A DNA stretch of 64,000 bases from Girardia tigrina. Taxonomy: Eukaryota. This document shows positions 605 through 62,068 of this stretch, piece by piece; the first letter of the stretch is position 1, and each line of letters opens with the position of its first letter. The notes under the pieces are model-generated. The model worked only from the letters and a program-made list of their open reading frames with translations, searched no databases and was not told the origin of the DNA. Both the position numbers and the translations under genes were made by a program. Location: NCBI GenBank assembly GCA_001938485.1, contig MQRK01241122.1, forward strand, positions 1 to 64,000, in the 5' to 3' direction.

Positions 605-999
605 ATTTTGCGTCACCTTGTATATAAATATGGTTTTTGTTCGACAAGTCCTTCTTTCAAGCAAATGTATCATTACATTATATTTTAAATTAAGTACACT
701 TTTTCTTTTTAAAAAAATAAAAGAAAGATAAATAAAGATAAATTTCTGAAGATCTACGAGCTAGACCACATCTGAGAACACATCAATCAAGGGATAAAAA
801 TTTCTTCAAACATGAAGAACAAAGCGAACAATTTCTTGAAATCAGTAAAAAAAATTAAAAACTCAAGAATATTGACTAAAAACGTAAATTACTCAAATAG
901 AGGTCAATGATCGACTCACAAGACATAAGAAACAGTAATAATTAAACAACTCTGTAACCACTTTTAATAATAATAACGATAAGTAATGATTGAAAATTT

Positions 1000-1254
1000 A
1001 GCTATGTTTAGGGCTCATAAAAGTCATATTTTGTCAGAATATTATTGCAGAAAATATAACCTCATTTAGTGTTTGTGCTCTATCAAATTCTCCAAAAATG
1101 ATTTTTATCTGTCTTCTTTTAATGTGAATCTACAAACTTTATATTCACACTGTGTCGCATGAACATTTTTCAAATATAAATATTTTCATAACAAAGAGAT
1201 TTATTTTTGTAAATTAAAAATATTCAAGATTACTTATTCCTCACATCTTCCCCC
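1000..1254 (-). mobile_element. Polypurine tract plus start of a 3' LTR (Gypsy-like)
   Basis: Minus strand reads GGGGGAAGA|TGTGAGGAATA, the same start as the abundant LTR-like family; left boundary approximate. Confidence 0.45.
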
Positions 1255-2974
1255 ATGATTTCTACAAAGAGCAGAAGTCCAATAGTTTTTTTTTTAATAT
1301 AACTTGTTAAGTCCCTAAAAAGCTTATAATTATGAAAATATTAATAAAAAAGTAGATGGATCATGATGGGACGAACATATTACCCCTGTATGTAACAAGT
1401 TGGTCAACACTCGTGTGTTCAATTAACTCGTGAAAAGGGTCTTAACAAACCATCAGAAATTAGTTTTGTTTTTGAAAATGTTCTCACGATACGAGAGAGA
1501 GAACGGCACAGATAAATCTCGATTTCGATTTGTGTTTGTTGTTCAAAGGTTTCAAGGAATGATCTTCTGTTGTAACAATATCGATGGAAACGTCAGAGAA
1601 TCATTTGGTTGCTCAACGAGATTTTGAGAAAATAGATCACATAAAGAGGAGCACTTTCAGGGGGAATATTGATAAATGGGTTTGTAGAAAACTCCTTTAC
1701 GAACCGATTTCACAAGAAAACGCTCTGCAGGCAATATAGTATAATTGTAAACAGTATTAATGATTGTTTTTATCGATCGTTTTTATATATATAATTTTTA
1801 ATATATATATATGTATCATTTTATATATAATTTATATATAATAATTGACTGGGTCACTACAGTTTTCTTCATCGTTTTAATTTACATCGGTTCTTATCCA
1901 TTTTTGATTCAATTTCAGCAAACATTGACATTTTTCTACGAAATATAGTACCACTTATTTGGTTTTATAACTTATTCAAATCTGATGGATTGTGTTGTGG
2001 AGAGTATTATCTGATGGATATCGTTCCAGTGATAATGATTGTTTATACGATCAAGATTCGGATTAAATATGCCAATTATAATTTGAAAATATAATTATTT
2101 GCTTCAGTAATCAAATATAAAATATAATACAAATCCGATAGAGAGTAACGCTAACCTTTATTTATGTTCATTTTAAATAATTGGCTTTCTAACGGGACTA
2201 CAGAAAATTGTTTCTCGTTGTTCTTTTTATCATTTAATAAACTTTCGGAACATTTATTTAGGATAATCATTCAAATAAATAAAATATTAATATTGAAAAA
2301 TGTTTAGAAGACATTTTTTACCAGTTTTCTAAAGTTCAAGATGCTTCCACCTCTCCTTGAAATTATAATGAATGTATGATAAATTCAAAATAAACCCGTA
2401 TCAATTATTTAAAGATTCGAATAATATAGGAGGAGTCAAACAGCTTTGGATAATTAACACATAAATGATGCCGGGGAAAAATAATGTTTATTACGAATAA
2501 AAAAATATTATTGAATTTCTGTTTGGAGAACATAACACTGATATTATTCGAACACATGGTTTTTCGATCTATTTTCCAATTTTCGCAATCAATTTTCGAA
2601 TAAAAATAGAATTTAAAAAATTAAAAAAATGAATAAGGAAATAAAATTATAAAAATTATCATAATTAAAAGTAATAAATAAGTAAATAATTTCCAAAAAT
2701 TTATCTTTGACATAGAATTTTTATTCAAGAATTGCTTCTCTCCTTTCAGCTTTCATGACGTATCTAAGAGTCTTCCAATAATACCTGTGTCAGATTGTGG
2801 GAAAAAATTGGACATAAAAATTGCTTATCAGTACTAGAAGCATTGTTGAAGGGTGGTATAAAGGTTTAGGTCTAAAAGATTTAGGAGTAAGGTGAAATGC
2901 GGGTCAGCAGCTACACAAACATTCATTGTCATCTTCTTAATAAATGATATGTATTTATTGAACCATGTATAATA

Positions 2975-10992: not shown

Positions 10993-11801
10993 TTGAAATA
11001 TTCAGCATATGATATTTCTATACTATTAAATGTTGTTTTATTTTTTGTTTGTCTTTCCAATAGAAACATGATACAATTAATAGAATGATACATAATACTT
11101 AAAAGAACATAATGTAAAAGGCAATCACCAATAAAGATATGATAAACAAACAACTTAAGCATTTACAAATATTAAAAATAAAATTCTTAAAAATTATTAA
11201 AAAAATTATTAATATTATAAATTTATTAAGTTTAGTTTATTCATGCATCGAATTATCGTAATACTGAACAGTCACTGCGCTTTTTAATTTTAAAAGCTAA
11301 ATATTTGTTGGACAACCTTGTTTTAAGTTTTTGTTAAGTAAAACAATATTTAATCCAATTTAATTATAAAATTTTAATCATTATAGTCATTTAAAATACT
11401 AAAAAGTATTTATATTATTATTTAATCATTTAAATAATAATATTATTACAAATAATTACATGTATAAAAAGAGCTTTTTATATTACCACGTTTTTAACAA
11501 TAAATTTTTTCCACTATATTGTCCTTAAAATTTCAGTTTTCTTTTTTAAAATATTTAATCACTATATTCTCACAAACAAACACAAAATACATAAATTTTT
11601 ATGAAATATTTAAATAATTTAGTTATCAACTGTTTACATTAACTATTAAAATCCCTATACTTTCAACAACGCCATTTATCGATGTTGTTCTTCAATTCCT
11701 ATATATTTAAATTGACCGGTATTAGCGTTAACTAGAATTGATAAAATAAAATGATGAATTAAAATTAATTTATATCGTAAGATATAATCTGATTTGAGCT
11801 A

Positions 11802-12698
11802 CGAGGGGTGTCCCAAAAGTTCACGGACTGAGAGAATATGGCATGGTCACGTATGTGGGTGACTGTAACGCGCGATGTGTGTACGATGACATGAGAGGGA
11901 ACCAACCAATTGTAATTGAGGTGAACTCTCATTGGCTGCTCGTCGGCATGTGTGTGACATACGAATGCATTATTTTGTCATTTTTCTCTCTTGTAGTTAG
12001 TATGGAAGAGGCAGTGAAATCTCAACAAGCAATCATCTATTTCCTTTGGAAGGAAGACACCCGCACTGCAGATATTGTGCTCCGTTTACACCGCGTCTTT
12101 GGTGATGCCGCTAAGGGAAGAACGGCTGTCTTTAAGTGGGTGCAACGATTCCAGGCATGGCGTCAATCATTGGAGGATGATGAACGGAGTGGGCGACCAA
12201 CAACGTCCGGATGTCAAGAAAATGTGAAAGTTATCGAGGAAGTCATTCTTGGTGACAGATGTCTCACTATCCATGAGATAACAACTATTACAGACGTTTC
12301 TAAAAGTCAGGTGCACCGCATCATATCAGAGGAGCTGCATATGAGGAAACTGACTGCAAGGTGAGTGCCGCGCCTCCTCAATAACGGAGCAGAAGACTAA
12401 TCGAAAGTCTGCTTGTCAAGAATTCGGTGAGGCGTTCTGGTCACGAATTGTAACAGTGGACGAAACGTGGCTCCCGTTTTATCTTCCTGAAACAAAGGAG
12501 CAGTCCCGTCAATGGTGCCGCCCAGGTGACAGATCCCCTTTAAAGGCGAAGACCGTCCCTTCAGCCGGGAAGGTAATGGTTACAGTCTTTTGGGACTGTG
12601 ATGGGATAATTCACATTGATTATCTGTCAAAGGGGGTCACTATCAACTTTTGAATTTGTTGTTACTTATCAGTCCGTGAACTTTTGGGACACCCCTCG
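11802..12698 (+). mobile_element. Internally deleted mariner element (irritans-like TIR)
   Basis: Perfect 30-bp TIRs CGAGGGGTGTCCCAAAAGTTCACGGACTGA with TA TSD; transposase from ATG 12002 (HTH, *VPRLL, VTVDETW, KVMVTVFWD); C-terminal catalytic half absent. Confidence 0.93.
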
Positions 12699-13484: not shown

Positions 13485-13836
13485 ATAAATATTTTTGAGT
13501 ATTTAATATTAATAGTTATATTACTATCATAAAATTTTACTTCCTTCAGTCTGGTGAATACTCGGATCAATATCTTGGTCGGTAAAAATCAAAATTCGAT
13601 GTACATAATTTATCAAATTGGTTCCAATCTTCCTGCTCCAGTATGTAAACCATTCCTATCGCCGAATTTGAGGTTATAAGTCAATAACTGTTATCTCGTT
13701 CTACTGCCTTGTTAGGCCACTTAGGCGCGCCAGTCAATTAATTAACTTACGGATGAAAGGTCATTCATTCACTTTCGAAATCATCTAATTTATTATCTAA
13801 TATTTTTATTTTATTTTTATTTATTTATTTTATTTA

Positions 13837-14657
13837 TTGGTGAAACGTATAGACATTTGCGATTCCCTTTTGAAGCGCGAACAAAGGGATCCATTTTTGA
13901 AGCTCTTGATTACGGGTGACGAAAAATGGATCGTTTACAACAATGTGGAACGCCGACGATCATGGACAAAACGTGTTGAGCCTGCCAAAACGATCCCAAA
14001 AGCAGAAATTCACCAAAAGAAGGTTATGCTTTCCATCTGGTGGGATTTTAAAGGAATTGTGTTTTTTGAACTCCTTCCGATGAATGAAACCATCAATTCA
14101 GACAGATATTGTGGTCAGTTGGAGAAATTGGCTCATTCAATTCAACAGAACGTCCTGAATTGGTAAATCGAAAAGAAGTTGTAATTCAGCATGATAACGC
14201 AAGACCGCATACAAGTTTGACCACTCGCCAGAAACTCTTATCACTGGGTTAAGAGGTTTTGCCGCACCAACCGTATTCTCCAGACTTGGCCCCATCGGAT
14301 TTTCACTTATTTAGATCACTGCAGAATTCTTTAAACAGAAAAACATTCGCCAGTGATGATGACATCAAATCGTTCCAAGACGGCTTTTTTGCTGACAAAG
14401 GCAAAGGTTTTTATGAATCAGGAATAATGAAGCTACCGGAAAGGTGGAANNNNNNNNNNNNNNNNNNNNNNNNNNNNNNNNNNNNNNNNNNNNNNNNNNG
14501 GTTTTTATGAATCAGGAATAATGAAGCTACCGGAAAGGTGGAAGAAAGTGATTGAAAATAATGAACAGTATATCGTGTAAAAATATTTGTGCATCCATGT
14601 CATTTTTTGATAATAAATGTTTTAGTAAAAAACGCAATGACTTTTTGACCAACCCAA
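13837..14657 (+). mobile_element. 5'-truncated mariner element (DD34D)
   Basis: ITGDEKW, HDNARPH, PYSPDLAPSDFHLF; frameshift and stop; right TIR ..GACCAACCCAA followed by TA. Confidence 0.92.
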
Positions 14658-21328: not shown

Positions 21329-22588
21329 TTAGGTTGGTCGAAAAATAATGGCGGTTTTTGAGCTTTATACTTTGTTTATCTACTTTGATATGTATATAAG
21401 TTTAAATGCATTAGTGTTAGATATTATTTGAAATCTTANNNNNNNNNNNNNNNNNNNNNNNNNNNNNNNNNNNNNNNNNNNNNNNNNNNNNNNNNNNNNN
21501 NNNNNNNNNNNNNNNNNNNNNNNNNNNNNNNNNNNNNNNNNNNNNNNNNNNNNNNNNNNNNNNNNNNNNNNNNNNNNNNNNNNNNNNNNNNNNNNNNNNN
21601 NNNNNNNNNNNNNNNNNNNNNNNNNNNNNNNNNNNNNNNNNNNNNNNNNNNNNNNNNNNNNNNNNNNNNNNNNNNNNNNNNNNNNNNNNNNNNNNNNNNN
21701 NNNNNNNNNNNNNNNNNNNNNNNNNNNNNNNNNNNNNNNNNNNNNNNNNNNNNNNNNNNNNNNNNNNNNNNNNNNNNNNNNNNNNNNNNNNNNNNNNNNN
21801 NNNNNNNNNNNNNNNNNNNNNNNNNNNNNNNNNNNNNNNNNNNNNNNNNNNNNNNNNNNNNNNNNNNNNNNNNNNNNNNNNNNNNNNNNNNNNNNNNNNN
21901 NNNNNNNNNNNNNNNNNNNNNNNNNNNNNNNNNNNNNNNNNNNNNNNNNNNNNNNNNNNNNNNNNNNNNNNNNNNNNNNNNNNNNNNNNNNNNNNNNNNN
22001 NNNNNNNNNNNNNNNNNNNNNNNNNNNNNNNNNNNNNNNNNNNNNNNNNNNNNNNNNNNNNNNNNNNNNNNNNNNNNNNNNNNNNNNNNNNNNNNNNNNN
22101 NNNNNNNNNNNNNNNNNNNNNNNNNNNNNNNNNNNNNNNNNNNNNNNNNNNNNNNNNNNNNNNNNNNNNNNNNNNNNNNNNNNNNNNNNNNNNNNNNNNN
22201 NNNNNNNNNNNNNNNNNNNNNNNNNNNNNNNNNNNNNNNNNNNNNNNNNNNNNNNNNNNNNNNNNNNNNNNNNNNNNNNNNNNNNNNNNNNNNNNNNNNN
22301 NNNNNNNNNNNNNNNNNNNNNNNNNNNNNNNTTTTTCAGGCATTTGTACAACTTCCTACGTGAAAAAATTTTCAAAAACCAAAATGATGCTCAAAATGCC
22401 TTCCAAGAATTAGTCGCTTCGAGAACCGATGCATTTTATGCTGATGGAATGAAACAACTTGTTTCTCGTTGGCAAAAATGTATTGATGCCAACTGTTCAT
22501 ACTTTGATTAATAAACTTTTGTTTCTGTGAATTTGCACGTCTTTGAAGTTTGTGTCCCAAAACCGCCATTATTTTTCGACCAACCTAA
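21329..22588 (+). mobile_element. cecropia-subfamily (Hsmar1-like) mariner; interior is N
   Basis: TIRs TTAGGTTGGTCGAAAAATAATGGCGGTTTT; ends nearly identical to 59664-60934. Confidence 0.9.
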
Positions 22589-23404
22589 CATATAACACGA
22601 AGAACCAAAAAAGAGAAGAGAAAGGAATTTTATATCGATACAAAATAAGTTTGAATAACAATCCAAACATTTAATCTCCCTTCCAAATAAGTCAATTATC
22701 AATCCTAAACTTCAAGAAATAATATCAGTCAAGAAACGATACGAAAGCTGCACGAGTTAAGATAAAAAGTCTTAAGAAATGTCGTAGGCGATGAACCATT
22801 GACAACATTTGTGATGATATTTTTCGAAAATTTTTCTAATGCCTATCAAAATAGATTTGTATATATAAATCGTTTAGTTTTTTAAGAATTCATCTACTAA
22901 TTTTATTAAAGTACTAATATAATTATAATAAACAATAATATTATGAATCTACAACAATTTTTGACATTTTACGTAACGACATTATATTGATGTTTATTTA
23001 ACATTAAAATATCAAAATATAAATAAACATATAAAATAAATATTTTCATATATCATCTGAAACATTTGAGCGCATCGAGATAATGATTATTTATAAACTA
23101 TAAGTCAGATACAAATATGTTATTAAAAACTAAATTCATCCATTAAAAAATATATTTATTGACAATATATTTCGACGGATCAACCGTCATATTCAGCTCA
23201 CTGATTAATAATTTAATTTACCTGTAAATAAATGAAAAATAATAATTATGTAATCTACTGCAATAAATCATGCTAATCAAAAATTCTCAATAAGCTGGTT
23301 GAGACTGTCGATTGAACACTGATTTTAGGGCAACGCGGCCTAATCAACAACACTTCATACGGCACTCTCCACATAACTATCAAATAATTAAACCATCAGT
23401 AATA

Positions 23405-23765: not shown

Positions 23766-24999
23766 TATATTTTTAAATGGATGAATTTTGTTTTCAATAT
23801 AAAATAAGTTCTCAAAATTACTGGATAAAACAGTAAAAAAATATTCTTTTGAATTAATTAAATCAAAATTAATTTCCAATGTCTAAAATGTGGAAGTCTT
23901 TCCATCTAAAAATGAGATTCTTTAATTGATACATAAAAATTAAGTAAATAAGAAAATGAATATTGAAAACTTAAATAATTGGAATATTTAATTTAATTAA
24001 TTATTTCTTTTGAACTAAATTAAGGAACATTTATAATTTTAATTAAAACAGGATTTTGTTTTGTTTTCAATTATTTTTTTTGACAGACAGAAACGAAATC
24101 CAATTTTCTTTTTGGTAATAAAAAATAATATATTATGTTTTTGGAATTGACAGTTTTTTATAAGCTAATAAATGTTTCTACATATTAAACACCAAACCAC
24201 AAATTTGTTCATGATTTACGTTTTAATTAATATATATATTTATCTTTTTATATGTATATATTTCCATCTTTATATATATGTTATCCTACTTAACTTTATC
24301 TATCATACTTAAATGTATATGTTCCAATAAGTTCTGTTAAACCCTCATTATTTACTAAATAAAATAGATATTTTATCACTTAAAGAAAATGTATTAAGTT
24401 GTCAGAAATGGTCTTAGAGTTTTTTTATTCGATCATAACTTTCGTGGTATTTACCGAACATAATCAAAATAGAATACTATTTGAATCAGTTCAAGTTTGT
24501 TGAAGCAATACAAGTTGATTTATTCCGTCAGCGAAATTTATTGCTGACACAAATCACAAAGAGTGTTTTCGCCTGGTTCTGATTGACGAAGGTTCTAAGT
24601 CCTGAGAAAGATGGTATTTAGTTTGAAAAAGGTCTAGAAAGTATGATGGTGACACAGAATTTTGAACTGGAAGTCGTTTAATTTTTTTCAATGAATTGAA
24701 AAACGTGTGGATGGACGTTGTAGTGCAGTCAATTGCCGCCATATCTGTGGACCATCTGAGAAATCAAAAAGGCTTTAAAAATATTTTCAGAACAAGTCCT
24801 TTTTAACACAAAAGACTTTTATTTGATTATAAACGAAGAAGAGATTTCAAAAACATCAAAAAAGAGCAATATTTACAGAACTTAAACATTTTCAACATTT
24901 ATTACATTCACAATTTTGATCATCTTTATAATTTAATAGTGATTTCGCTCATATTCATCAATCAATGTTTGATACTTCTAATCCAAAAACGTGAACTAA

Positions 25000-25313
25000 C
25001 TTGAAACTATATTTTATTTTAAATATTTACTACAAATGGTATTGGTTAAAATAAAGTTGCTATTAATAATTTAATAAATTAATTTAATTTAATTATTTAC
25101 AAATTTAAAAAAATAAAATTATTTAAAATTTACAATCATAATAAATTAAAAATTTGAATATTAATTATAAATTTGAATTAAATTAGTTTCAGATTATAAG
25201 AATTAGAATATTAATCATCAATCTGAGTAGGGAAGGCACAATTCCAAAGCAACGCACAACATGCAAACTTTCAAACAACACACAAAACATCAAAATTCTT
25301 AATATTCCTCAAA
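25000..25313 (-). mobile_element. Decayed copy of the LTR-like family
   Basis: CAATCTGAGTAGGGAAGGCACAATTCC..AATATTCCTCA resembles the family core; left boundary approximate. Confidence 0.45.
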
Positions 25314-30477: not shown

Positions 30478-31035
30478 TGTAAATAAATATGATTTAATAA
30501 AATTCAAATTGTTTTTATTAAGAGCACCAACATGGGTTTTCAAACTTTTATTTTCAATACAATCAGAATTGTCTTTTGGACAATTCTCAGCAAAACTCTC
30601 GTCATTCGACATCGTTCTAAATTGATAATTTTTTCTAATGGTTGTTAATAAACAATTATTTGAACAAATTTTTCATTATTTTCAGATTTTATTTTTAAAA
30701 TTTAAATTTTGTAGTTTTAGTATTAATTTTTATTTACATATTAATTTTATTTAAAAATTATTTTATGTAAAGAAAGAACATTTAATTAATTCAAAACTTA
30801 GTTAAAACTATTTATTTTATTTAAATTTTAATATGAAGATTTTATATTTTTAATGTTTTTAAATATCTTATGCTGTAATTTAAAATATAAATTATACTCG
30901 AATAATTATCTATCGTGAACATCCAAAATATTAATTTTCCATCTGGGTGGGAGAAACACATTTCCAAATACTAAACTCAACATACAAAATTCAACAAACC
31001 AATTTCAACATACCAAATTTAAAATATTCCTCACA
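30478..31035 (-). mobile_element. Solo LTR-like repeat containing a gag N-terminus
   Basis: Starts TGTGAGGAATATT; core TTCTCCCACCCAGATGG; ATG at 30612 gives MSNDESFAENCPKDNSDCIENK; no TSD found. Confidence 0.65.
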
Positions 31036-31148: not shown

Positions 31149-31668
31149 TGTGAAGAATATTTTAATTTGTTTGAATGTGTAAATGTAGTGATGCTGTATG
31201 TTGATTTAAGTATGTTGAATTTAGAATGGTGATTCTCCCACCCAGATGGAAATTGGTATTTTTTTATTTAAATTTAAGGGATTGACTATTCGAACATAAT
31301 TAAAATAATCATTTTATAAGTTCATATTTTTAATTTCACAATTAAAATTAAGTTTAATAATTTTTAGTAAAATTTAAATTAAATGCATTTTTAATAATTT
31401 GATGACATTTTTATTATTTTGGGATTTATTGAAAAATGGTAGAAATTATTATTTTTTAATTAATATTTTTTAGAGATTAAATATTTTAAAAAATAACTTA
31501 GAAAAATTGTTCGAATAATCATGATTAAAAACAGAAATAAGAAAACCAATTAGAAGGATGACAAACGATGAAAGACTTTCTGAGAGTTGTAATGACTCTA
31601 AATGTGATTGTAATAAACATTCAAATGATACTTATTTAAATGTTCTCAATAATCATAAATAACCCACA
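31149..31668 (+). mobile_element. Solo LTR-like repeat containing a gag N-terminus
   Basis: TGTGAAGAATATT...CCCACA; same core; ATG 31558 gives MTNDERLSESCNDSKCDCNK. Confidence 0.65.
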
Positions 31669-41890: not shown

Positions 41891-42759
41891 AAGTCATTGT
41901 TAAATTATAACTATTTGAATTTATTGTAATTATAAATTATTATTTATGTGATTATTAAAACTATTCCTATGCAAAGTTTCTTTCAAGTCGCTACTTTTTG
42001 CTTGTACATTCATAAAATCAAATAAATTAATAAATATTAAATAAAAACTAAACTAAACTAAATACTACAATCAAAAAAGCTTGAAATAAAAAATGGAGCT
42101 AAAATATTTAAATTTTCTTCCTTCAAAGTGGCATCTAATAATCGCATGTAGAATCTGTGAGACATTTGTTTGGGGACCTCCCCCGAATTAGATGCAGTGT
42201 CAACAAACCTTCTGGGGATTTCCATCATTAAACAAATTCCATAAAACTGTAATCGATGTCAATTTTTATTTAAACATAAAATTTTTTAACTTAGAAAGAT
42301 TTTATAATTTTTTCTTTGAAAAAAAGTAAAAAATAATATCTAAAACTAAAAAAATCCTATCTCATGTAAAATAATATTAAAATAATTCAAAAGTATTCTT
42401 AACGTAAATGGAATGTGAAGAATAATTTAATATATGAATTTCTTTTATTAAATTTGGAATTGTGATTCTTCTACCCAGTTGGAAAATTGATGTTTATTGT
42501 GCTAACGACATTTAATTGTTCAAATAGGATATGCATTATTAAAAGTTAAAGCAGTAACATTTTAATTATTATGAAATAATGATTAATGATGAAAATTGAA
42601 ATATAAGTAATATTAAATAAAAATGATGTAAAATATACAATAGAACTAGGTTAATAGCACAACCCTCCAGACCGGAAAAAGTGTGCTATAAACCGGGCAG
42701 TGCTATTAACCAAGAACGATTGTTTGAATACCACCTCAATAATAAAAGACAGTAAGTAT

Positions 42760-45270
42760 AATAACATGTATTGTAAAGTACAATATGAAATTACACGAAA
42801 ACTTAAAGAATTGCAACCTACAATTCAGAGTAACCGCGTCCCAATAGTATTAAAGAGAAAACTGATTAAGACTAATATTTTCTCTGTGGTCTATTATGTT
42901 ACTGAGTGCTGGGCAACGCCTGAGAAGGACGTTGCACGGTTACAAGCCTTCCATAATTGCTGCACAAGGACAGTTCTCAAGAAGAGTAAACTCGACAGGA
43001 TACCGAATAAGGACATGACTATTGGACTGACTGAGGCAAGAGTGATTCTAGCCAAAAGACGCATATTACTCTATGAATACAATTTACGGAAGGGTGTAAC
43101 TGAGGTTGCCTCAAAAAATCACAGAATCAGCAACCGTAAAAAGCAACTGATGAGAGAGCGCATTGCTTGCGATGTGCTCTGGATATTCAACGATACAGCA
43201 GATTTGACAGAATACAGGGAAAGTCTAAACGAAATAGATCTTCTCGACAATGACGAAAATTTAAACACCTGATCAAAGGAACCATATCTGAGCGACTGAA
43301 AGAGGCAGTCGAGCTCGAGAAAGAATATCCGAAAATGCTTCAGCCGCGCATCAAAATATTAGGTTGCAAATTCCCTTCTTGCTTTAAAGAATTTGCTGAG
43401 CAGAAGGAACTCACAAGACACATTAAGAATGTGCATCTGGCCACGACACAGAGAGGTGGTGGTTCATTCATATGTCCCAACGAGAACTACCACAAAACTT
43501 ATAAAACTAATTGATGGCTAAAACGACATTTATTAATTGATCATCGAAGGTAATAGTACTACAAACATCTAAGTAGTACAAAGAGAAGAAACATAAAGAC
43601 GTACTGGACCTTTGAACTTGAACGCGGAACATGATATGCCAGTGTCTGTCAGTGTAACTAATGAGAACTGTCCAAGAGTAATCCCTAGTGGGGTGCTGAA
43701 TTTTCGGCTGGATAATATAACGGATAAGTCAGTGGTCGGCAACCTTTTTGCCAAATTTTACTATTTGTTAAAAAAATTAAAAGTCAGGAGCCTTAGTTTT
43801 GTAATTATTAAAAAAATATAATTTAACCTAGAAGAAGTTTTTAGTGTAAATAAAATAATTTTTTTCTAAGAAAAGAATCGAATTTTATTATAAAAAATAA
43901 CATTTTACATATAAAATTTAACTTGAGTTTTTCATTTAATGTGATCTGTAAAAGGTTTTTCTCGTTGAGAAATTTTGTGTAAGACTGTAAAAGTTAGCTT
44001 GAGTCGTATTGTTAGCTGAGTTCATAAAAGTTTTCATCACATAACTCAATTGGGATGCATTTTCTTGCAAATATGTAATCTCTCGAGTTCTTTCATCTCC
44101 AAGTAGATATTTAGCTGCAAAAGCCTTGTGTTTCCGTTGAAAATGCCTTTCAATGTTCGATTTTTTAATGCTTTCATAAATCTTTCAAATCTTTCATAAC
44201 ATATAAGATACTTCGGTAATCCATTCACCTCTATGATGACTGCAATTATATTTATCCATTCTTTACGGAAATATCTACGCTCGTCGTAGATTTTGCGCTT
44301 TTTTGGTGACTGCATTTAATGTCCTTATAATGAAAGTGTTTCTTAAATTATTTTTTAATTACGAAATTACAAATTTTGGCAATAAAATTAAACTTACGTT
44401 ACAAATTTTCTAAATTAAGCTACGTGCTTCAGTATTAATGAAGAATTATTTGAAAGAAGTTAAATAATTGTTTTATTTTTTTGTATGATTTGAACTCACT
44501 TGAGTTAAAAAGAAGAATTTTAACTATTTTAAACAACCTCTTTTTTCTACAATGACTTTAAATTCTAGTCTGGTTTTTTGCTAAGACGAAAACTATTTTC
44601 AAAAAAAAAACACTAAACAAAAATTTAATTGGAATTAACGTATATATATTTTGTTGTTTCTTTTAAATTGATCATTTTTACTTGACCATTCGATAACATT
44701 TTATTACAGCAGGTTCATTTTTTTACTAAATTCGTGAACATACTATACTTATAACACTATTATTTTTTCATATATTGAACTATAAAAAATAAATTTTCTA
44801 AAGTATATGGAAAATTAATAATATTTTTTGTGTAGAACAAAAAATATTTTATGTTGAGCGTGTAAATTTACATCCACTGTAAAATTTGATGTGGAGCCGT
44901 AAATTTATACATCCGGAGCCACATTGGGCTTCGGAGCCGCAGGTTGCCGACCGCTGGGATAAGGTATTGTTTTATTGCCCATTTCACCGTTGCACTAAGT
45001 GCGTTTATACAGCCAGAAGTATCCAGAATCACGGAACGAAGTAACATGATTAGTCATTTCTCAGAGGGAAGTCGAAGCGTGCCCCTGCATTGAAAGCTCG
45101 CACTCTTGCATCTGAAGCCGTGTGAGAGGATCGGAAACTTTGTATTTGTCAAAAGGTTTCTACTCGATACAGAGTCTATAATTCACTACACTGTGTGCCA
45201 ATGCTGAGTATTATTTGTAATACACAGTTATCCTAAATAGTCTGAGGAGGCTTATTATGAAATTACAATA
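42760..45270 (+). mobile_element. 5'-truncated RTE-like LINE with C2H2 zinc fingers, interrupted by a hAT
   Basis: Post-RT motif LKRKLIKTNIFSVVYYVTECW..RLQAFHNCCTRTVL..DRIPN; three C2H2 motifs downstream. Confidence 0.7.
43730..44956 (-). mobile_element. hAT (Charlie/Buster-type) deletion derivative
   Basis: TIRs CAG(T/C)GGTCGGCAACCT; 8-bp TSD GGATAAGT/GGATAAGG; N-terminal remnant MQSPKKRKIYDERRYFRKEW..LICYE. Confidence 0.9.
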
Positions 45271-47859
45271 TAACAAAATAATCAGAAATAATGGTTTCTT
45301 TATTTTTCCTCAAACAGATTTTTGTGAAAAAAATCGTCAAGACCATCAATTTGGTTTTCTTGTATTTCTGAATTGCCCTCGAATTGTTTTGAATATTTGA
45401 AAAGTGCATAAAATATCGAATAATCGAATATTCGTAAGTGAAAACTCTATTTTGCGATTTTAAATTTTAAAGGGTTCAGAGCGAAAAGATTAAAGTTGCA
45501 TCGAGTCCATATTCCAATTATCCCCCTAAACTATCAAATTAACTATCTTTACTTTACCATGACAACAATTGCTAATTGTCTTTGTCATGTCATGATTCAC
45601 TAGCCACTTAACTTGAACATACCCACCTACTGTGATATTAACCTGGCACAAAGGAGGCGTCATGACAGAATACCTGTTCTATAAACCGATTTGTGCCAGT
45701 AACCGAGCACAACTCACTGTAAACTGCTTCCAAAGTTCGTGCCACAAAAATCCGTGCTATTAACTGGTTTGTGCTATTAACTGAGTTCTACTGTATTTCG
45801 AATATTTTCATCTAATGAATTCTAGAAAATTAAAGCTTAACAAAATATTTAAGAAATTACGTTTAAAAATTAAATAGATTAGTTTTCAAATAATTTAATA
45901 AGTTTTATAAAGATTCAATTAAAAAATTTAAAGGATTTTTTAAAAATATTTACAAATTTTAAAAGATGAAAAAAATTAATTTTATCAAAAATTAATAGAA
46001 ATTTTGTTTGAATAATCTAGAAAGACAAATAGCGATTTAGAACGATGATAAATAGTGGAAACTCTGTAGAAAATTGTCCCGAAGACAATTGAAATTGTGT
46101 TATAAATATAAATATTGAAAACATTATTAATGCTTTTAATAGACAATACTAAATAAGTATTTTGTTTGCAATTGTGAAATTGTTTTATTTTAAAAAACTT
46201 AATTTTTGGCCAGAAAAGGCTCTAAGAGTTACCAAAAAAGAGGTATCTTCAACCTTCTACCCTCCAATTTCGAATCCACGTTTTTCCAGTTTACCGAGAT
46301 GCTTCGTAGTTGAAGTGAAAAACAATCAATTTTGAGTCCCCGTAGCATGATTTTAAAGAAAGATATACTTCTTAACAATTTAAAGTCTGACATTTAGGTC
46401 AGGACATTTCGTCCCATACAATTCTGTTCATTTACTTTACCAGGTGATACTAAATCACAAATACCAGCTATCCTGATGAAAACTTCGGAGGAAATAAGAG
46501 ATTAAATGACTCGATTAGTCTTTTGCCTTCATAGTCATGTCTGATGATCAAGTTGTGTGAGCAAACGCTGCAGTCTTCCATCAAAGTTTTAAGCATTGAA
46601 GTCAAGCATTTTAATCAAAAAATGACTTTAGTCGCTGCCCAATATAGTAAGAGTCACTATGACATTTTCGTTAACAAATTTTTCTAAAATCGTTAAATAA
46701 TGAAAATATACTTGCATATGCGTTCTCTTCGAAATTAATTTTCAATTATTTTTTCTTTTTTTGCTCATATTCACATCAATATAAGTGACTTCAACCTGCA
46801 TAAGCATAGTTCCATATCTGGACAAGAGGAGTTCCTTAACAGTCTTCGTCACTTTGTCACAATCTTCCACTTAATTGTATCATTTAAATCAGTCGTACAT
46901 ATAACTCTAAAACATTTTCAATAAATAAAATATTTTCTGAAAAACGAAATTCGAGATTTATTTTCTTTAAAAAATATTTTTCTGATTTTAGATTCTTTTT
47001 ATTTCATTAATGATATTTCAAACTTAATATTATTTTTTTACTCTGCACGACATCTGAATGTGGGTCTTAATTTTATAGCACAGAAATTTTCTAATTTATA
47101 TTTATTAATTAAATTATTGGCTAGAAAAAGAATACAACAAGGAATTTAAATTAATAATTGTTCTCGTTGGCGACTCACAAAGCAATGATTAAACTATTTG
47201 TAATTCCATAAACGGCGGAGTAATAAACTAGCTAGATCCATCTGTTAGATTTTTTTTAACTTATTAAAGGGGTAACCTTTTTGGAAATTAATTACTGTAT
47301 TTAGTTTGACCTTTGGAAAAAAACATTTATTTCTCGGTTATTTTCGTCTGAAGATCATTATTTATCAACGGTAACGTGTTGACGTATACCCAATGTTTTT
47401 AACGCACTGCTTATCATATACCATTCTCATTTTTATGTTAACCGTTTTTAAAAAAAACCAAATATAAAATAATTTCAAATTTAAATATTGAATTTTTTTA
47501 TGATCTAATTTTAGAGCATATTTTTGGAGATCGACTAATGAATGGACTCCGTGTTCGAAACCTTGTGGCAAAGGAGAAGAAACGCAAATGTTTATTTGCC
47601 TAAAGAAAACTCACTATCGTACAGAAGAATACCAAGATCCTAAAAAATGCTCCGGCAAAGCTCTTCCGAAAATGTAATTTATAATTTTTGAATATAATGA
47701 ATTATAAAGGAAGATGTAATATTTCATTTTTATAGGTTAAAATCCGAATACTTATTCAATAATAATCGTTCAGTTATAATTACACTTATTACACAAGAAC
47801 TATTCATACTTATTTCTGCAAATAAAAATGATAGGGACAGATATAATAGCGTGAATTAC

Positions 47860-48234: not shown

Positions 48235-48901
48235 GTACATAGCATTTTCACTATTGTTTCATTTTATATCATTACAAAACGTTATTATTATTAACAACAT
48301 CAATATGAGGTTTTAAACATTTATTATTATCACCAACGCCTTCACTATTTGACAATTTTCTTGATTAATATATTTTCTGAATTCATACTTTTGAATTTCT
48401 GAATTCATTTTTCAATAAATGAAAATCTTTTAATAAAAATCATTAATTATAAAGCATCTAATTTGTTAAAATTAAATCTAAACATTTTTAAAAAAGTACA
48501 TATTAAATTAATATTTTTAAAATTTTAAATTACATTAAAAATTAAATAATACATTCAACAATTATTTTAAATCTTTTTACTTTAAAATTAAATTAAATTA
48601 TTTTTAATTAGTAGGCATCAAAGAAAATATCAATCCTCCATCTGTGTAGAAGAGACACAATCCGACAACATACAACAATCAATTAACATTCAACATCAAC
48701 ACACAATTCAAAACAGTCCTCACAATTATTATATACGCTTTTCTTGTATATAATGTAAAATTTTGTAATTAACTGTTTTGAAGAAAGCTTATAGCTAGGT
48801 AAAAACTAATGTTATTTTCGGATTCGCCGTCTCAAAATTGATGTAGAGAAATCTAAAATTCAAATGAAACAGACATTTCAAAAAAATTTTGTTGCTCTGT
48901 G
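47860..48901 (+). mobile_element. Chapaev3-like (CMC) transposon 3' part, interrupted by (TA)n and an LTR copy
   Basis: LGCRMSFKLHYLH..FFPENISAVSEEHGERFQYD..RYKG..MMEDY; terminus TTTTGTTGCTCTGTG. Confidence 0.75.
48270..48724 (-). mobile_element. Decayed LTR-like copy with gag-like start
   Basis: TGTGAGGA start; decayed core at ~48637; NCQNSEGVGDNNKCLKPHIDVVN. Confidence 0.55.
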
Positions 48902-55493: not shown

Positions 55494-55615
55494 TATATAT
55501 AAATATATAGCAATACAATTTTCAATGAGTGAAATTGGCTCAATTCGTAAATCTAGTGTTAATATATTTTAATTAATCTTTATAATGTAAGATTTAATTT
55601 CATTTCGTCATTCAG

Positions 55616-56467
55616 TGTCCCATATCAACAGATTGTAAACAGCAAGTGCGTCGAAGAGAAGTAAAATGTGTCTCATTATTGAGTTCTGGAAGCCTAAAAA
55701 TTCAGTCCAGTGGAATTTGTTATCGAATGAGAGAAAAACCTCCAAGCAGCTGGATGCATTGCCAGTCGAATCTCAATCAACATTGCCTTGAATTAAAAAA
55801 GGAAAATAAAAAAGCCCATTCAATAATTAAAATTAAACAGGAAAATTCTGAGATTCATCAAATGAGACATACAAAGCGTCTTAAGGTGTTTGTTGGTCAA
55901 ACGGCGTACGTGTTTGGTTTTTCCAGATTATCATTGTTTTGTCCAGTTTCAAAAATCCATCGAAATAAAATCATGTGGATACATGAAAATAAAAGTTATG
56001 AGTACGATGGAAGTCTAAGAGAAAGAATTAAAGTCAACCCAAAAGGTGCTTTAATCATTCGAGAATTTTATCTAAAGGATGCTGGTATATGGCGATGTAA
56101 AGTTGGTAAATACACAGCAGATGTTGTACTTCGACTTGAACAACAATCAACTGGATTTGACAACTGGCTTAAGAGACATGCTAATCACAATTATGGAATG
56201 CTAAATGAAGAATCAAATGTTTCTTTTATTAGACCGGAATCAATAGTTTGGATGAAGTCAGAATGGAGTCCATGTTCAACAACTTGTGAGAATAAAGAGA
56301 ATAGTGGTTTCCAGACGAGAAGAGTAACATGTGAAAAGATAGAAAGTCAATATTACAAAATAATTGATGACAAATATTGTCCTCCAACAAAACCTATCTC
56401 AGTAAAGAAATGCAAATCTGCAGACCTATGTCCTGTTTGGAAAGTTCTTTCTGACGAACAAGAACAG
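55616..56467 (+). CDS. ADAMTSL1/madd-4-like: ADAMTS-like protein, exon B (end of TSP1, Ig domain, TSP1)
   Basis: TTCAG acceptor; 852 nt open frame; Ig motifs LFCPV..IMW..GALIIREFYLKDAGIWRC; TSP1 WMKSEWSPCSTTC..GFQTRRVTC; donor CAG|GTAAAA. Confidence 0.9.
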
Positions 56468-56599
56468 GTAAAATCTTATAAATATATATAAATTTTATAT
56501 TTTCCTTTAAAATTAAAAGTCTTTCATTATTAAAGCGTCATAAATGTGTCGAAATAGTTAAAAATAATTATAATAACACATCTTAGACAATTATTAAGT

Positions 56600-57170: not shown

Positions 57171-57229
57171 AATATTTATTATAAATGTTTTATTTGTAAA
57201 AGTATCAGCCACTGAATATTTTCTATTTG

Positions 57230-58140
57230 TCTTTGTCCTTCGGTCTCTATATTTAACATTCGAATAATTTCTTCTGTCATCTCTTCCGGTCTTTCCATTG
57301 TCTCATTTCCATTGCTCCCGTTCTCTGAATTTATTCGGATTTTCATAGTACTGTGTTCCTACGTGTCCTTTCCTGTTAGAGGGTTGCACATAATATTTGG
57401 GCATTTTCTTCTTACAAGACCTTCTTGTGGCATGCCCAACAAGAAAATCTTTTAGTTTTGAAATTTCTCTTTGTTTCTTCTGTTATTCTTTCTTCGTTTC
57501 GTGATCTTGGTTGTCGTCTGGAGAAGGCATCCACTCTTATATCTCTGCTCTTTGATTCGAATTCGTATATTTTCTTTTGTATACATTCGATACCCTCAGC
57601 TTACGAGACACCTCTCAGGGCTATCTTTCTCTTCACTTCTCTATCATCTACCACGTAGGCATATGCCAGGTCTGATATATATTTTTCCAATTTCTTTTCC
57701 ACTAGTTTTCCAACTAGTTCGTCTTTTTTCCAAAATAAGGTTGATGGGTCGTTCGATCCAACTTTTATTTCAACAAGTTCTCTCATTCTCTCTACGATGT
57801 TCTCTTCTCTAGTGAATGCAGATCTCATTTTTGTTGGCCAGCTATCTCCTTGTGCATTATCGTACTTATTTATTGCTTCCGGAGTCATGAATGCTGTCAC
57901 CAGCAAGACTTTTCTTTCTTCTGAGAATCCCATGATTTTCGTTTATCTACCAAAGCATATTAAGAACTCCTCTACTTTTGACTCAGATCCGTCAAATATC
58001 TCTGGACTTCTAATGTTCTGAGTCACATGGTCGTTGGTCAGCATATTAAGAACACTAATTGGATTTTTCATACATTTATTTGTATCACAACTTGAATCGC
58101 CACTAGGACAATTCTCCATAAAACTTTCATAGCTAGTCAT
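57230..58140 (-). pseudogene. gag: Gypsy-like gag pseudogene
   Basis: PEIFDGSESKVEEFL capsid-like start; helical body; decayed knuckles CWACHK-EGLVRRKC and C..GKGH near 57350-57445; stops and frameshifts. Confidence 0.75.
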
Positions 58141-58454
58141 CGTTCTTGATTGATAAATTTAATTCTATTTCCGAACGTCTTATTATTTAAAAAAATTAAA
58201 TTACAATTTATTTATAATTTGATTTCAAAATAATTTATAATATAAATTACAAAAATAATTTTAATTATTTAAAAAATATTTTAGATATATTAATTATGAT
58301 ACATTAATTTAATTTTAAAGTAAGTTATTTAAATTTTAACACTGAATAAATACTTCGACGTTTTAAAATATTTAAGATATCAATCTTCCATCTGGGTGGG
58401 AGAACACAATCCTAAAACAACATACTATAATCACCTTTTAAAATATTCCTCACA
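58030..58454 (-). mobile_element. Putative 5' LTR overlapping the gag start
   Basis: TGTGAGGAATATT start at 58454; core TTCTCCCACCCAGATGG; gag ATG at 58140 lies within the region shared with the solo copies. Confidence 0.6.
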
Positions 58455-59369: not shown

Positions 59370-59663
59370 GTAAGTCAATTAGACATTTGTTAAAACAGAC
59401 CATCATCTGTTGAATATGAAAAAATGAAAATAAGTCTGGAAAAATAGATTCTATGATTAAATTAACAAAATTTACGGGAAAAAATTGCAAAGGAATAAAA
59501 AAAATATTTTTGTTCAAATTCATATTTAATATCAATTTATCGGCTGAAATATTTAACCGTACCACGTTTTTATTCGTTTTGATTTTCTGTTTTAATTTTT
59601 ATCGAAAATTAATTTCATTATTTAACAATAATTTTGAAATTAGATTTTAATAGAAAGCACATA

Positions 59664-60934
59664 TTAGATTGGTCGAAAAATAATGGCGGTTTTGGGACAC
59701 AAACTTCAAAGTCGTGCAAATTCACAGAAACAAAAGTTTATTAATCAAAGTATGAACGGTTGGTATCAATACATTTTTGCCAGCGAGAAACAAATTGTTT
59801 TATTCCATCAGCATAAAATGCATCGGTTCTCGAAGCGACGAATTCTTGGAAGGCATTTTGAGCATCATTTTGGTTTTTGAAAATTTTTTCACGTAGGAAG
59901 TTNNNNNNNNNNNNNNNNNNNNNNNNNNNNNNNNNNNNNNNNNNNNNNNNNNNNNNNNATGAAGCAGGGTTTCATAGCCCAACTCATTAAGCTTTTGAAG
60001 AGTCACTTTCGAAATATGAGGTCTAGCGTTATCATGAAGAAGGATGGGACTTTTTCGATTGACCAATCCCGGACAAAAGGTTTTCAATTTTTTATGCATT
60101 TCATCAATTTCATCACAATACCTCTCCGCTGTGATTGTTTCACCTGGATTCAAGAAACTATAGTGGATGATTCCAGCATCACACCACCAAACTGTCACCA
60201 TAACCTTACGGGGTGTTAGTTTCGGTTTTGGAAAGTGTTTCGGTACTTCATCTTTGTCCAACCACTGTGCAGGTCGACGTCGGTTATCATAAAAGGATCT
60301 ATTTCTCATCACAGGTAACAATACGATCAAGAAATGGATCGAAGATGATTGACAGAACAAATTTCATAGCGTCGATTCTTTTGATTTTCATTCAAGTCAT
60401 ATGGAACCCATTTATCAAGTTTCTTGATTTTTCCAAGTTGTTTTAAATGATCCAGAACTGTTGAATGACTAATGCCCAACCCATCTGCAAGTTCTCTGAT
60501 TGTTGTACGGGGATCTGTTTCCACCATTGTCCTCAAATTGTCGTTATTCACAGCAACTGGACGACCACGACCTTCTTCATTTTCAAGGTTTTCATCTCCA
60601 TCAGAAATTTTTCGGAACGATCGTTGCATTGTGCGCTCAAAAGCTGTTCCCTTGCCAAACGCTTTATTGATATTACGAGCCGTTTCTGCTGCTTTACGAC
60701 CCAGTTTAAATTTGCACAAGAAAATTGCTCGAATTTTAAGTTTTTCCATTATTAATTTAGCACCGTAATATTCTAAAAAATAACAGCAATATGTTAATAA
60801 TGGCTATAGGAATATACAGCTAGGCATAAGATTTCAAATGATATCTAACACTAATGCATTTAAACTTATATACATATCAAAGTAGATAAAAAGTATAAAT
60901 CTCAAAAACCGCCATTATTTTTCGACCAACCTAA
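59664..60934 (-). mobile_element. Near full-length cecropia-subfamily (Hsmar1-like) mariner; transposase 60749-59741, frameshifted
   Basis: TIRs with TA TSD; IRAIFL..GRKAAETARNIN, WVPYDL, TCDEK*, HDNARPH; 1271 bp including a short gap. Confidence 0.95.
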
Positions 60935-61699
60935 TATATATATATATAATATTATATATTTATTGTTATTTGTTGTCATTAACACTATAACGGGAATGGT
61001 ATATTTAAATGAAATAAAAAATTAGGCTGCTATTAACGGTAGATTTTATTGTTACTTGATTTGTAAAAGACGTAGGTTGAGTTCTTTTCAGTACATTAAC
61101 GAAGCATAAACAACACAAAGGAAAGAAAGAACGCAAACTAAGAGAGACGTGAATTAATCGCACTGACTGAAAATAAATACAACATAGTTGTAATTACAAA
61201 ATGCAACAATATCGAAAAATGATTGTGAGATATTTAAAATAGAATTATTTTAAAATCTCGATTTTTAATGATAAAAACAAATGAAGGAAACAATCAAAGT
61301 AAAAAGTAATATGAGAATAACAGAAAATAATCCCCTAAATAAATAACGCATAAAATCAATATCAATATTTACAACATATTAATATTTTTATACTAGAATC
61401 GTTATGTCGAAAATTAAGAAAATTAATCGACGGGTTCTGAAAAAAAATACATGAACAATAAAAAAATATATTTCTTTAAATATTCGAATATTGTTGGGTG
61501 GTTTTTTTGAAAGAATACATTTTGGAACCGTTTAAATTGTTTTCACCGACTTAGCATATTTTTATTAAGCGAATTTATTTTATCGATGACCGTTACGTTG
61601 GACGATAACGAGCTGGCCGGGATCGGAGCTCAGAATGATACAAGGTCGTATGAAGATTATCTATGAGAGACTGAACGAATTTGTTACAACTTTTCCTTT

Positions 61700-62068
61700 T
61701 ATACATTTATATTATTTTCAATGATTTTATTTTCTAAATTTCTACTTCAATGATTTCTTCAATAACTTTATTTAAAAATTATTTTAATTTAAACGATTTC
61801 ATTTAGAAAAAATTATGTCATCGATTTTTAAATTCACTAATTTAATTAATTTTAAATTTATCAAAAATTTTAATATTTTAAAAGTTAAAATTTTTAGATA
61901 TCATATTTTAATTTAAAATGTAAATCATTTCCGAACAATTAATCATTACGAACATCCAAAATATCAATTTTCCATCTGGGTGGGAGAAGCACATTTCCAA
62001 ATACTAAGCTCAACATACAAAATTCAACATATCAATTTCAACATAATAAATTTAAAATATTCTTCCCG
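61700..62068 (-). mobile_element. LTR-like family copy (5' part)
   Basis: 61948-62065 is nearly identical to 30915-31032. Confidence 0.65.

Follow-up and report, generated by a model that had tools for sequence, protein, structure and literature searches.

A Ty3/Gypsy group in Girardia tigrina with a gag frame that opens inside the LTR and a tRNA-Arg(ACG) primer site within that frame

A gag start codon inside the LTR is atypical for animal Gypsy elements, and the repeats of this locus raise the question of whether it can lie there, and how such an element would be primed. The window analysed here is a stretch of 64,000 nucleotides (contig MQRK01241122.1 of assembly GCA_001938485.1) from the planarian Girardia tigrina. 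A preliminary description of the window proposed a family of solo LTRs that contain the gag AUG, with a primer site inside coding sequence and possibly unusual priming. The elements are a Ty3/Gypsy group that uses the intact 3' end of tRNA-Arg(ACG) as its primer, and in which the gag frame opens 26-32 codons inside the LTR and crosses the LTR end and the primer-binding site (PBS). We consider it likely that translation of Gag begins within the LTR, as it does in Ty1.

LTR boundaries, element class and copies in the window

The host assembly (1.43 Gb) is AT-rich, and the GC content of the window is 28%. All seven repeat starts listed in the preliminary description (25313-, 31035-, 31149+, 42414+, 48724-, 58454- and 62068-) are present in the sequence, as are the four ATG-led peptides with ATGs at 58140, 30612, 31558 and 46045. 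The shared core that it had reported, searched as a 19-nt pattern, has 15,179 exact matches across the genome of the host, versus none for the reversed control. The repeats are LTRs of 410-530 bp (TGT...AATA, 5-bp target site duplication, TSD) that belong to an abundant Ty3/Gypsy group. Their boundaries were fixed with two-LTR copies, four of which occurred among 20 long stretches fetched; the two LTRs of a copy are 87-96% identical, and the 5-bp TSDs are exact in two copies and match at 4/5 positions in the other two. In the lineage of the window copy at 58 kb, the LTR is about 420 bp long, the polypurine tract (PPT) adjoins the 3' LTR and TGGCGAC.. adjoins the 5' LTR. The termini, as placed by the TSD, read TG...TA in all lineages, a variant of the usual TG...CA and not the loss of a defining feature. 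Read in the gag frame, the AAT that precedes the last LTR base encodes Asn, so that a switch between CA and TA would be silent. Element-type 5' junctions (1,070-1,172) are far fewer than cores (15,179), a rough comparison because the patterns were of unequal stringency, which suggests that solo or truncated LTRs predominate. Many short contigs break off 13-60 bases beyond the core motif; the assembly seems to break in the AT-rich middle of the LTR, and copy counts may be distorted.

The element is a Ty3/Gypsy LTR retrotransposon. Pfam domains include zf-CCHC in the gag of an open relative and RVT_1, RT_RNaseH and Integrase_H2C2 in Gypsy order, and three-frame translations of the two-LTR copies give the order PR-RT-RH-IN, with the protease motif spotted by eye; the integrase does not lie upstream of the reverse transcriptase (RT) as in Ty1/copia. 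The nearest solved structure to the RT is that of Ty3 (E 7e-37), all others being at 5e-23 or weaker, including the retroviral and caulimoviral comparison. The pol stop is a TGA at nucleotides 3-5 of the 3' LTR, and the integrase C-terminal frame crosses the PPT at each of the junctions recovered (8/8); in one of these the part upstream is disrupted. Because this frame runs into the 3' LTR, there is no third ORF or env after pol of the kind found in Errantivirus-like elements. The gag and pol frames overlap in -1, and G GGA AAC is present at 33 of 44 sites, a count that covers the ten commonest classes with overlapping loci left uncollapsed. A hairpin is predicted 3' of this sequence (-17.7 kcal/mol), and ribosomes would reach the pol frame by a -1 shift at G GGA AAC. 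At many lineage A copies an antisense open frame of about 242 aa overlaps gag (e.g. positions 623-1348, minus strand, of locus L036), which may be a mere effect of purine-rich sense codons.

The window copy at 58 kb is a 3'-truncated Gypsy copy on the minus strand. Its 411-bp 5' LTR (58044..58454, TGT...AATA, delimited by two-LTR relatives and BLAST) carries the conserved core motif at 58388..58404, recognised from the sequence and its genome-wide matches, and, by sequence and lineage comparison, an internal ATG that begins a run of 32 open codons in frame with gag (58045..58140). The tRNA-Arg(ACG) PBS follows at 58035..58043, with two of its nine positions mutated in comparison with intact junctions, and the last LTR base together with the first two PBS bases forms a second in-frame ATG (58044-58042). 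The gag remnant (57205..58043) comprises a capsid-like region and degenerate zinc knuckles, to which the zf-CCHC domain of the open relative corresponds. From 58454 to 57205 the copy is about 79-84% identical to its relatives, and the alignment with the 29 other copies fetched holds to roughly the 57205 point, nearly all of them extending beyond it. This copy had been described as the only one that continues into a capsid plus CCHC gag; the gag is there, but it is broken by stops at 57945 and 57603, its zinc-knuckle region is damaged and it is cut off at 57205. About 700 bp from it lies a 297-aa open frame (55598-56491, plus strand) in which Ig-like and TSP1_ADAMTS domains are recognised; it probably represents an exon of an ADAMTS-like gene of the host. 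Remnants of mariner transposase are found at 11798-12364, 13801-14166, 22350-22591 and 59661-60937.

The claim that the remaining copies are solo LTRs is borne out for three of them, each with an exact TSD. One is a lineage C LTR at 30516..31035 on the minus strand (ATG at 30612, TSD AAAAC, boundaries from BLAST), another a lineage B LTR at 31149..31651 on the plus strand (ATG at 31558, TSD ATCAT), and the third an old LTR at 48289..48724 on the minus strand, in which the ATG region is apparently deleted and the TSD ATAAT lies in a low-complexity flank. The copies at 42414+ and 46045+ are apparently one LTR (42414..46141, ATG at 46045, no TSD) split by a TIR-bounded insertion. The copy at 61711..62068 (minus strand) is a 3'-truncated LTR without ATG, in which only the first ~370 nt of the LTR are matched, and that at 24870..25313 (minus strand) is a degenerate LTR of another lineage, with an ATG near 24958, a frameshift and flanks that match at 3/5 positions. 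The insertion at about 42636-45795 (~3.2 kb) is flanked by TA, is Tc1/mariner-like and contains a LINE-RT-like frame at 42658-43272. The short copies do not stop about 40 codons into gag, as had been stated, but at the LTR end, 32 codons and one nucleotide after the ATG (31 codons and one nucleotide for 31558). They are solo LTRs produced by LTR-LTR recombination, or truncated LTRs.

The primer site and the fate of the primer tRNA

Intact junctions read TGGCGAC.., a canonical PBS for tRNA-Arg(ACG) that adjoins the LTR without a spacer. The apparent lack of a canonical TGG PBS was noted earlier because the PBS of the window copy is mutated. The further proposal that the primer site lies within coding sequence proved correct, since the PBS falls within the gag frame, which is open across it. 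The complement of the PBS matches 22 genomic sites, including arrayed tRNA-Arg(ACG) genes, and the perfect match between PBS and tRNA extends over 9 nt in lineage A, 7 nt in lineages B and C and 11 nt in lineage E. At 52 sites an exact complement of the tRNA, 15 nt or more in length, follows the LTR end, tails below 15 nt being undetectable by this search. Thirty of these junctions were fetched and represent 17 events, as grouped by eye from shared flanks. The tail is 18 nt long in eight events, 17 nt in three, 15-16 nt in two and longer in four; three of the four longer tails carry a wrong base opposite A58, and one halts just before G37. Reverse transcriptases halt or misread at m1A58 and m1G37. 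Priming is by the ordinary intact, modified 3' end of tRNA-Arg(ACG).

Several of the tRNA-tailed loci merit separate mention. In L138 (~349-425), a single case, the LTR end is followed by the complement of the whole 76-nt tRNA-Arg including CCA, with an anticodon reading GCG; this reading would fit inosine-34, but GCG also occurs in a genomic variant. L120, L139 and L145 carry the LTR with a 39-nt tRNA tail, and the sequence beyond the tail may be large-subunit rDNA, which it resembles. In L130, L132, L136, L137 and L140, a 3' LTR, with the integrase end and PPT upstream, ends in a 17-nt tRNA copy; these loci are one insertion that occurs several times in the assembly, apparently a cDNA integrated without trimming of its plus-strand end. 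The idea of a mini-element that propagates with a perfect PBS was rejected: loci with the same tRNA tail have identical flanks, meaning that a single insertion was assembled repeatedly.

The tRNA sequence is rarely inherited. Junctions with the PBS of the element itself number 1,070, versus eight (<1%) in which the tRNA 18-mer is followed by gag, three of the eight sharing one junction and perhaps not being independent. Four of the eight are longer by 4 nt and four by 1 nt, so that gag is shifted in all. According to the available text of PMC5371799, the primer tRNA's sequence is not passed on in Ty1 and Ty3, and the rarity observed here fits that pattern. As in the two yeast elements, plus-strand transfer would normally discard the tRNA-templated 18 nt, and thereby the gag frame that spans the PBS would stay intact.

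These data bear on two alternatives. Unusual priming, be it Tf1-like self-priming, a half-tRNA or no primer at all, was suggested by the absence of TGG behind the LTR in the window copy and might draw on the perfect PBS match of just 7 nt in lineages B and C; yet TGGCGAC.. stands behind the LTR in >1,000 copies, and the integrated cDNAs bear the CCA end of tRNA-Arg(ACG), mostly halting at 17-18 nt, which refutes it and makes it very improbable. Even less credit can be given to the notion that the short copies are not solo LTRs but gag sequences cut short at random 3' positions. The ends of some copies, namely 62068- and the 58-kb copy (at 57205), are indeed arbitrarily placed, but the 3' LTRs of two-LTR copies share the same end base as the short copies, and three window copies have exact 5-bp TSDs at that end, so that this explanation is refuted and its probability practically negligible.

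A gag frame that opens inside the LTR

The ATG that had been placed inside the LTR is indeed within it and in frame with gag, and its use as the start codon is likely. The LTR ends 31-32 codons past this ATG, or 26-28 codons past it in two sister lineages, and the frame continues into gag. A pattern that spans from the ATG to the PBS junction has 1,172 matches, versus none for the control; it requires an ATG, so that these counts describe lineages that have one. Among the first 100 of the 1,172 junctions, a few of them duplicate contigs, the distance is 32 codons in 53 and 31 codons in 35, whereas lengths that are not multiples of three occur in 12 scattered copies. In sister lineages the distance from ATG to LTR end is 96, 84 and 78 nt. 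Indels shared by lineages are multiples of three in 4/4 cases versus 0/12 (Fisher p=0.0005), with gaps set by eye and lineage B possibly holding two events. By contrast, the spacings immediately upstream of the ATG follow no such rule (50, 46, 51 and 36 nt). Copies of modal length contain 0.05-0.25 stops in the ATG frame, 0.25-1.9 in frame +1 and 5.9-8.7 in frame +2, versus 0.9-4 per copy in the 96 nt upstream of the ATG; in lineages C and E, frame +1 is likewise rather open. Several lineages include copies whose frame is unbroken from the LTR ATG through gag.

Other observations count against the use of this ATG. Net dN/dS between lineages, computed without E3, is 0.26-1.10 for the LTR codons and 0.54-1.39 and 0.24-1.47 for the other two frames, versus 0.11 for gag just downstream of the LTR. 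Thus, dN/dS of the LTR codons is not clearly below 1 and does not fall under that of the two alternative frames. The frame includes AATAAA (Asn-Lys) 37-40 nt before the LTR end (37 nt in the 58-kb copy), likely the poly(A) signal, indicating that the LTR segment carries nucleotide-level signals; the ATG context, AATAAA and the terminal AAT could be kept as DNA or RNA signals. The N-terminal peptide would then be a weakly constrained extension, constrained in frame but relaxed in sequence. Transcription would start upstream of the LTR ATG, which would place the ATG and the poly(A) signal within R.

Related proteins show a similar extension. All six database Gags at 37-94% identity have one (6/6). 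More distantly, 55 representatives were collected at E<=1e-10, of which 14 were dropped as fragments or knuckle-only sequences (three of these show the motif), leaving 41. An extension of 5-38 aa precedes MA(T/S) in 31/41, with Asn directly before the motif in 28/31, whereas the predicted start is at MAT in 8/41 and the motif is absent in 2/41; against a chance expectation of 0.36, the count of 31/41 has p of about 4e-8. Translation of the PBS gives the same N-MA(T/S) motif, suggesting that MA(T/S) marks the PBS of the distant Gags. Logan contigs from four runs cover the stretch; a contig of this kind reveals neither the transcription start nor the strand or level of expression and may contain DNA, and among the 17 runs listed, all of them Logan contigs, only two are recorded as RNA.

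The principal competing explanation is that Gag starts at the junction ATG, formed by the last LTR base and the PBS with no leader at all, and that promoter, poly(A) and attachment-site signals give rise, as a side effect, to the upstream ATG and its open frame. The lack of clear purifying selection on the amino acids of the LTR codons speaks for it, as do the strong context of the junction ATG (A at -3, G at +4) and the distant Gags that begin with MAT. It does not account readily for shared indels that are all multiples of three, for an upstream in-frame start in most of the distant Gags, or for an LTR frame that is free of stops across lineages only about 55-75% alike, where the shuffled segment is open with p 0.03-0.11. 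We therefore regard a start confined to the junction as unlikely. As judged from the sequence comparisons, the LTR ATG probably serves as the gag start, and leaky scanning may use the junction ATG as well.

Relation to known elements and implications

The layout, with an in-frame ATG in the LTR and a frame open across the PBS, is that of Ty1 of Saccharomyces cerevisiae, and a PBS for a tRNA 3' end, which self-priming (Tf1-type) and half-tRNA elements lack, is present. In the available text of PMC10512236, the Ty1 GAG start codon sits 40 bp upstream of where the 5' LTR ends, and that of PMC4974528 places the 10-nt PBS within the GAG ORF; the two systems share a gag frame that opens in the LTR, a PBS in that frame and non-inheritance of the primer tRNA. 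They differ at the other end, where the POL stop of Ty1 is 25 bp before the 3' LTR (PMC10512236, same text) and that of the planarian element is inside it. Ty1 is primed by tRNAiMet and is copia-type, whereas here the primer is tRNA-Arg(ACG) and the element is Gypsy-type, with 79-97 bp of coding LTR. In the copia-type order of Ty1, integrase precedes RT. Tca5 of Candida albicans, according to the parts of PMC4139406 at hand, has an ORF that reaches far into the left LTR, where more than one ATG is in phase and the true start is unknown. It shares the ORF beginning in the LTR but is copia-type, with a single ORF, a tRNAiMet primer and few solo LTRs.

Among Gypsy-type elements, Ty3 of S. cerevisiae has the same PR-RT-RH-IN order, the closest RT structure and a tRNA that is not inherited. 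It differs in its tRNAiMet primer and +1 frameshift, versus tRNA-Arg(ACG) and a predicted -1 frameshift here, and, in the text available from PMC4974528, in a 5' PBS segment by the 5' UTR, outside GAG, whereas the PBS described here is in the gag frame. The Drosophila elements 412/mdg1 have a tRNA-Arg-type PBS directly behind the LTR, and a leader sequence or short ORFs precede their gag. Likened by these general features alone, they agree with the planarian element in type and placement of the PBS and differ in the gag leader. Membership in CsRn1 is unlikely because the PBS tRNA (Trp there, Arg here), the TSD (4 bp versus 5 bp) and the Gag knuckle (CHCC versus CCHC) all differ. Our search, confined to open full-text papers, found no description of a Gypsy element with the gag start in the LTR; the layout is not addressed in the available parts of PMC12801592, PMC11381356 and a bioRxiv paper on Dugesia. 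This negative is a weak indication that the layout is new for Gypsy-type elements. A link to Gypsy elements of microsporidia was considered as well; in the accessible text of PMC4202319, planarian exchange is reported for Merlin and not for LTR elements.

The layout described for yeast copia elements would thus be extended to animal Gypsy elements, suggesting that annotators who place the gag start after the PBS miss the N-terminus. The genome also holds a fossil readout of reverse transcription: integrated cDNAs reveal which tRNA serves as primer and at which positions RT halts (A58, and in one case just ahead of G37), and the junction counts (8 versus 1,070) give the rate of tRNA inheritance. 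A mechanism known from yeast genetics thereby becomes examinable in an animal genome. More tentatively, and with less confidence than in the start codon itself, we can envisage a large unnamed Gypsy clade with both LTR ends coding (gag start in R, pol stop in U3) and a tRNA-Arg primer site translated as MATT. Such a clade might need its primer tRNA to go uninherited, as in Ty1, since inheritance shifts the gag frame, and each of its solo LTRs, which number in the thousands, might bring a promoter, a start codon and a frame open into host DNA, able to seed chimeric proteins. Host sequence could acquire start codons from solo LTRs that have an ATG and an open end.
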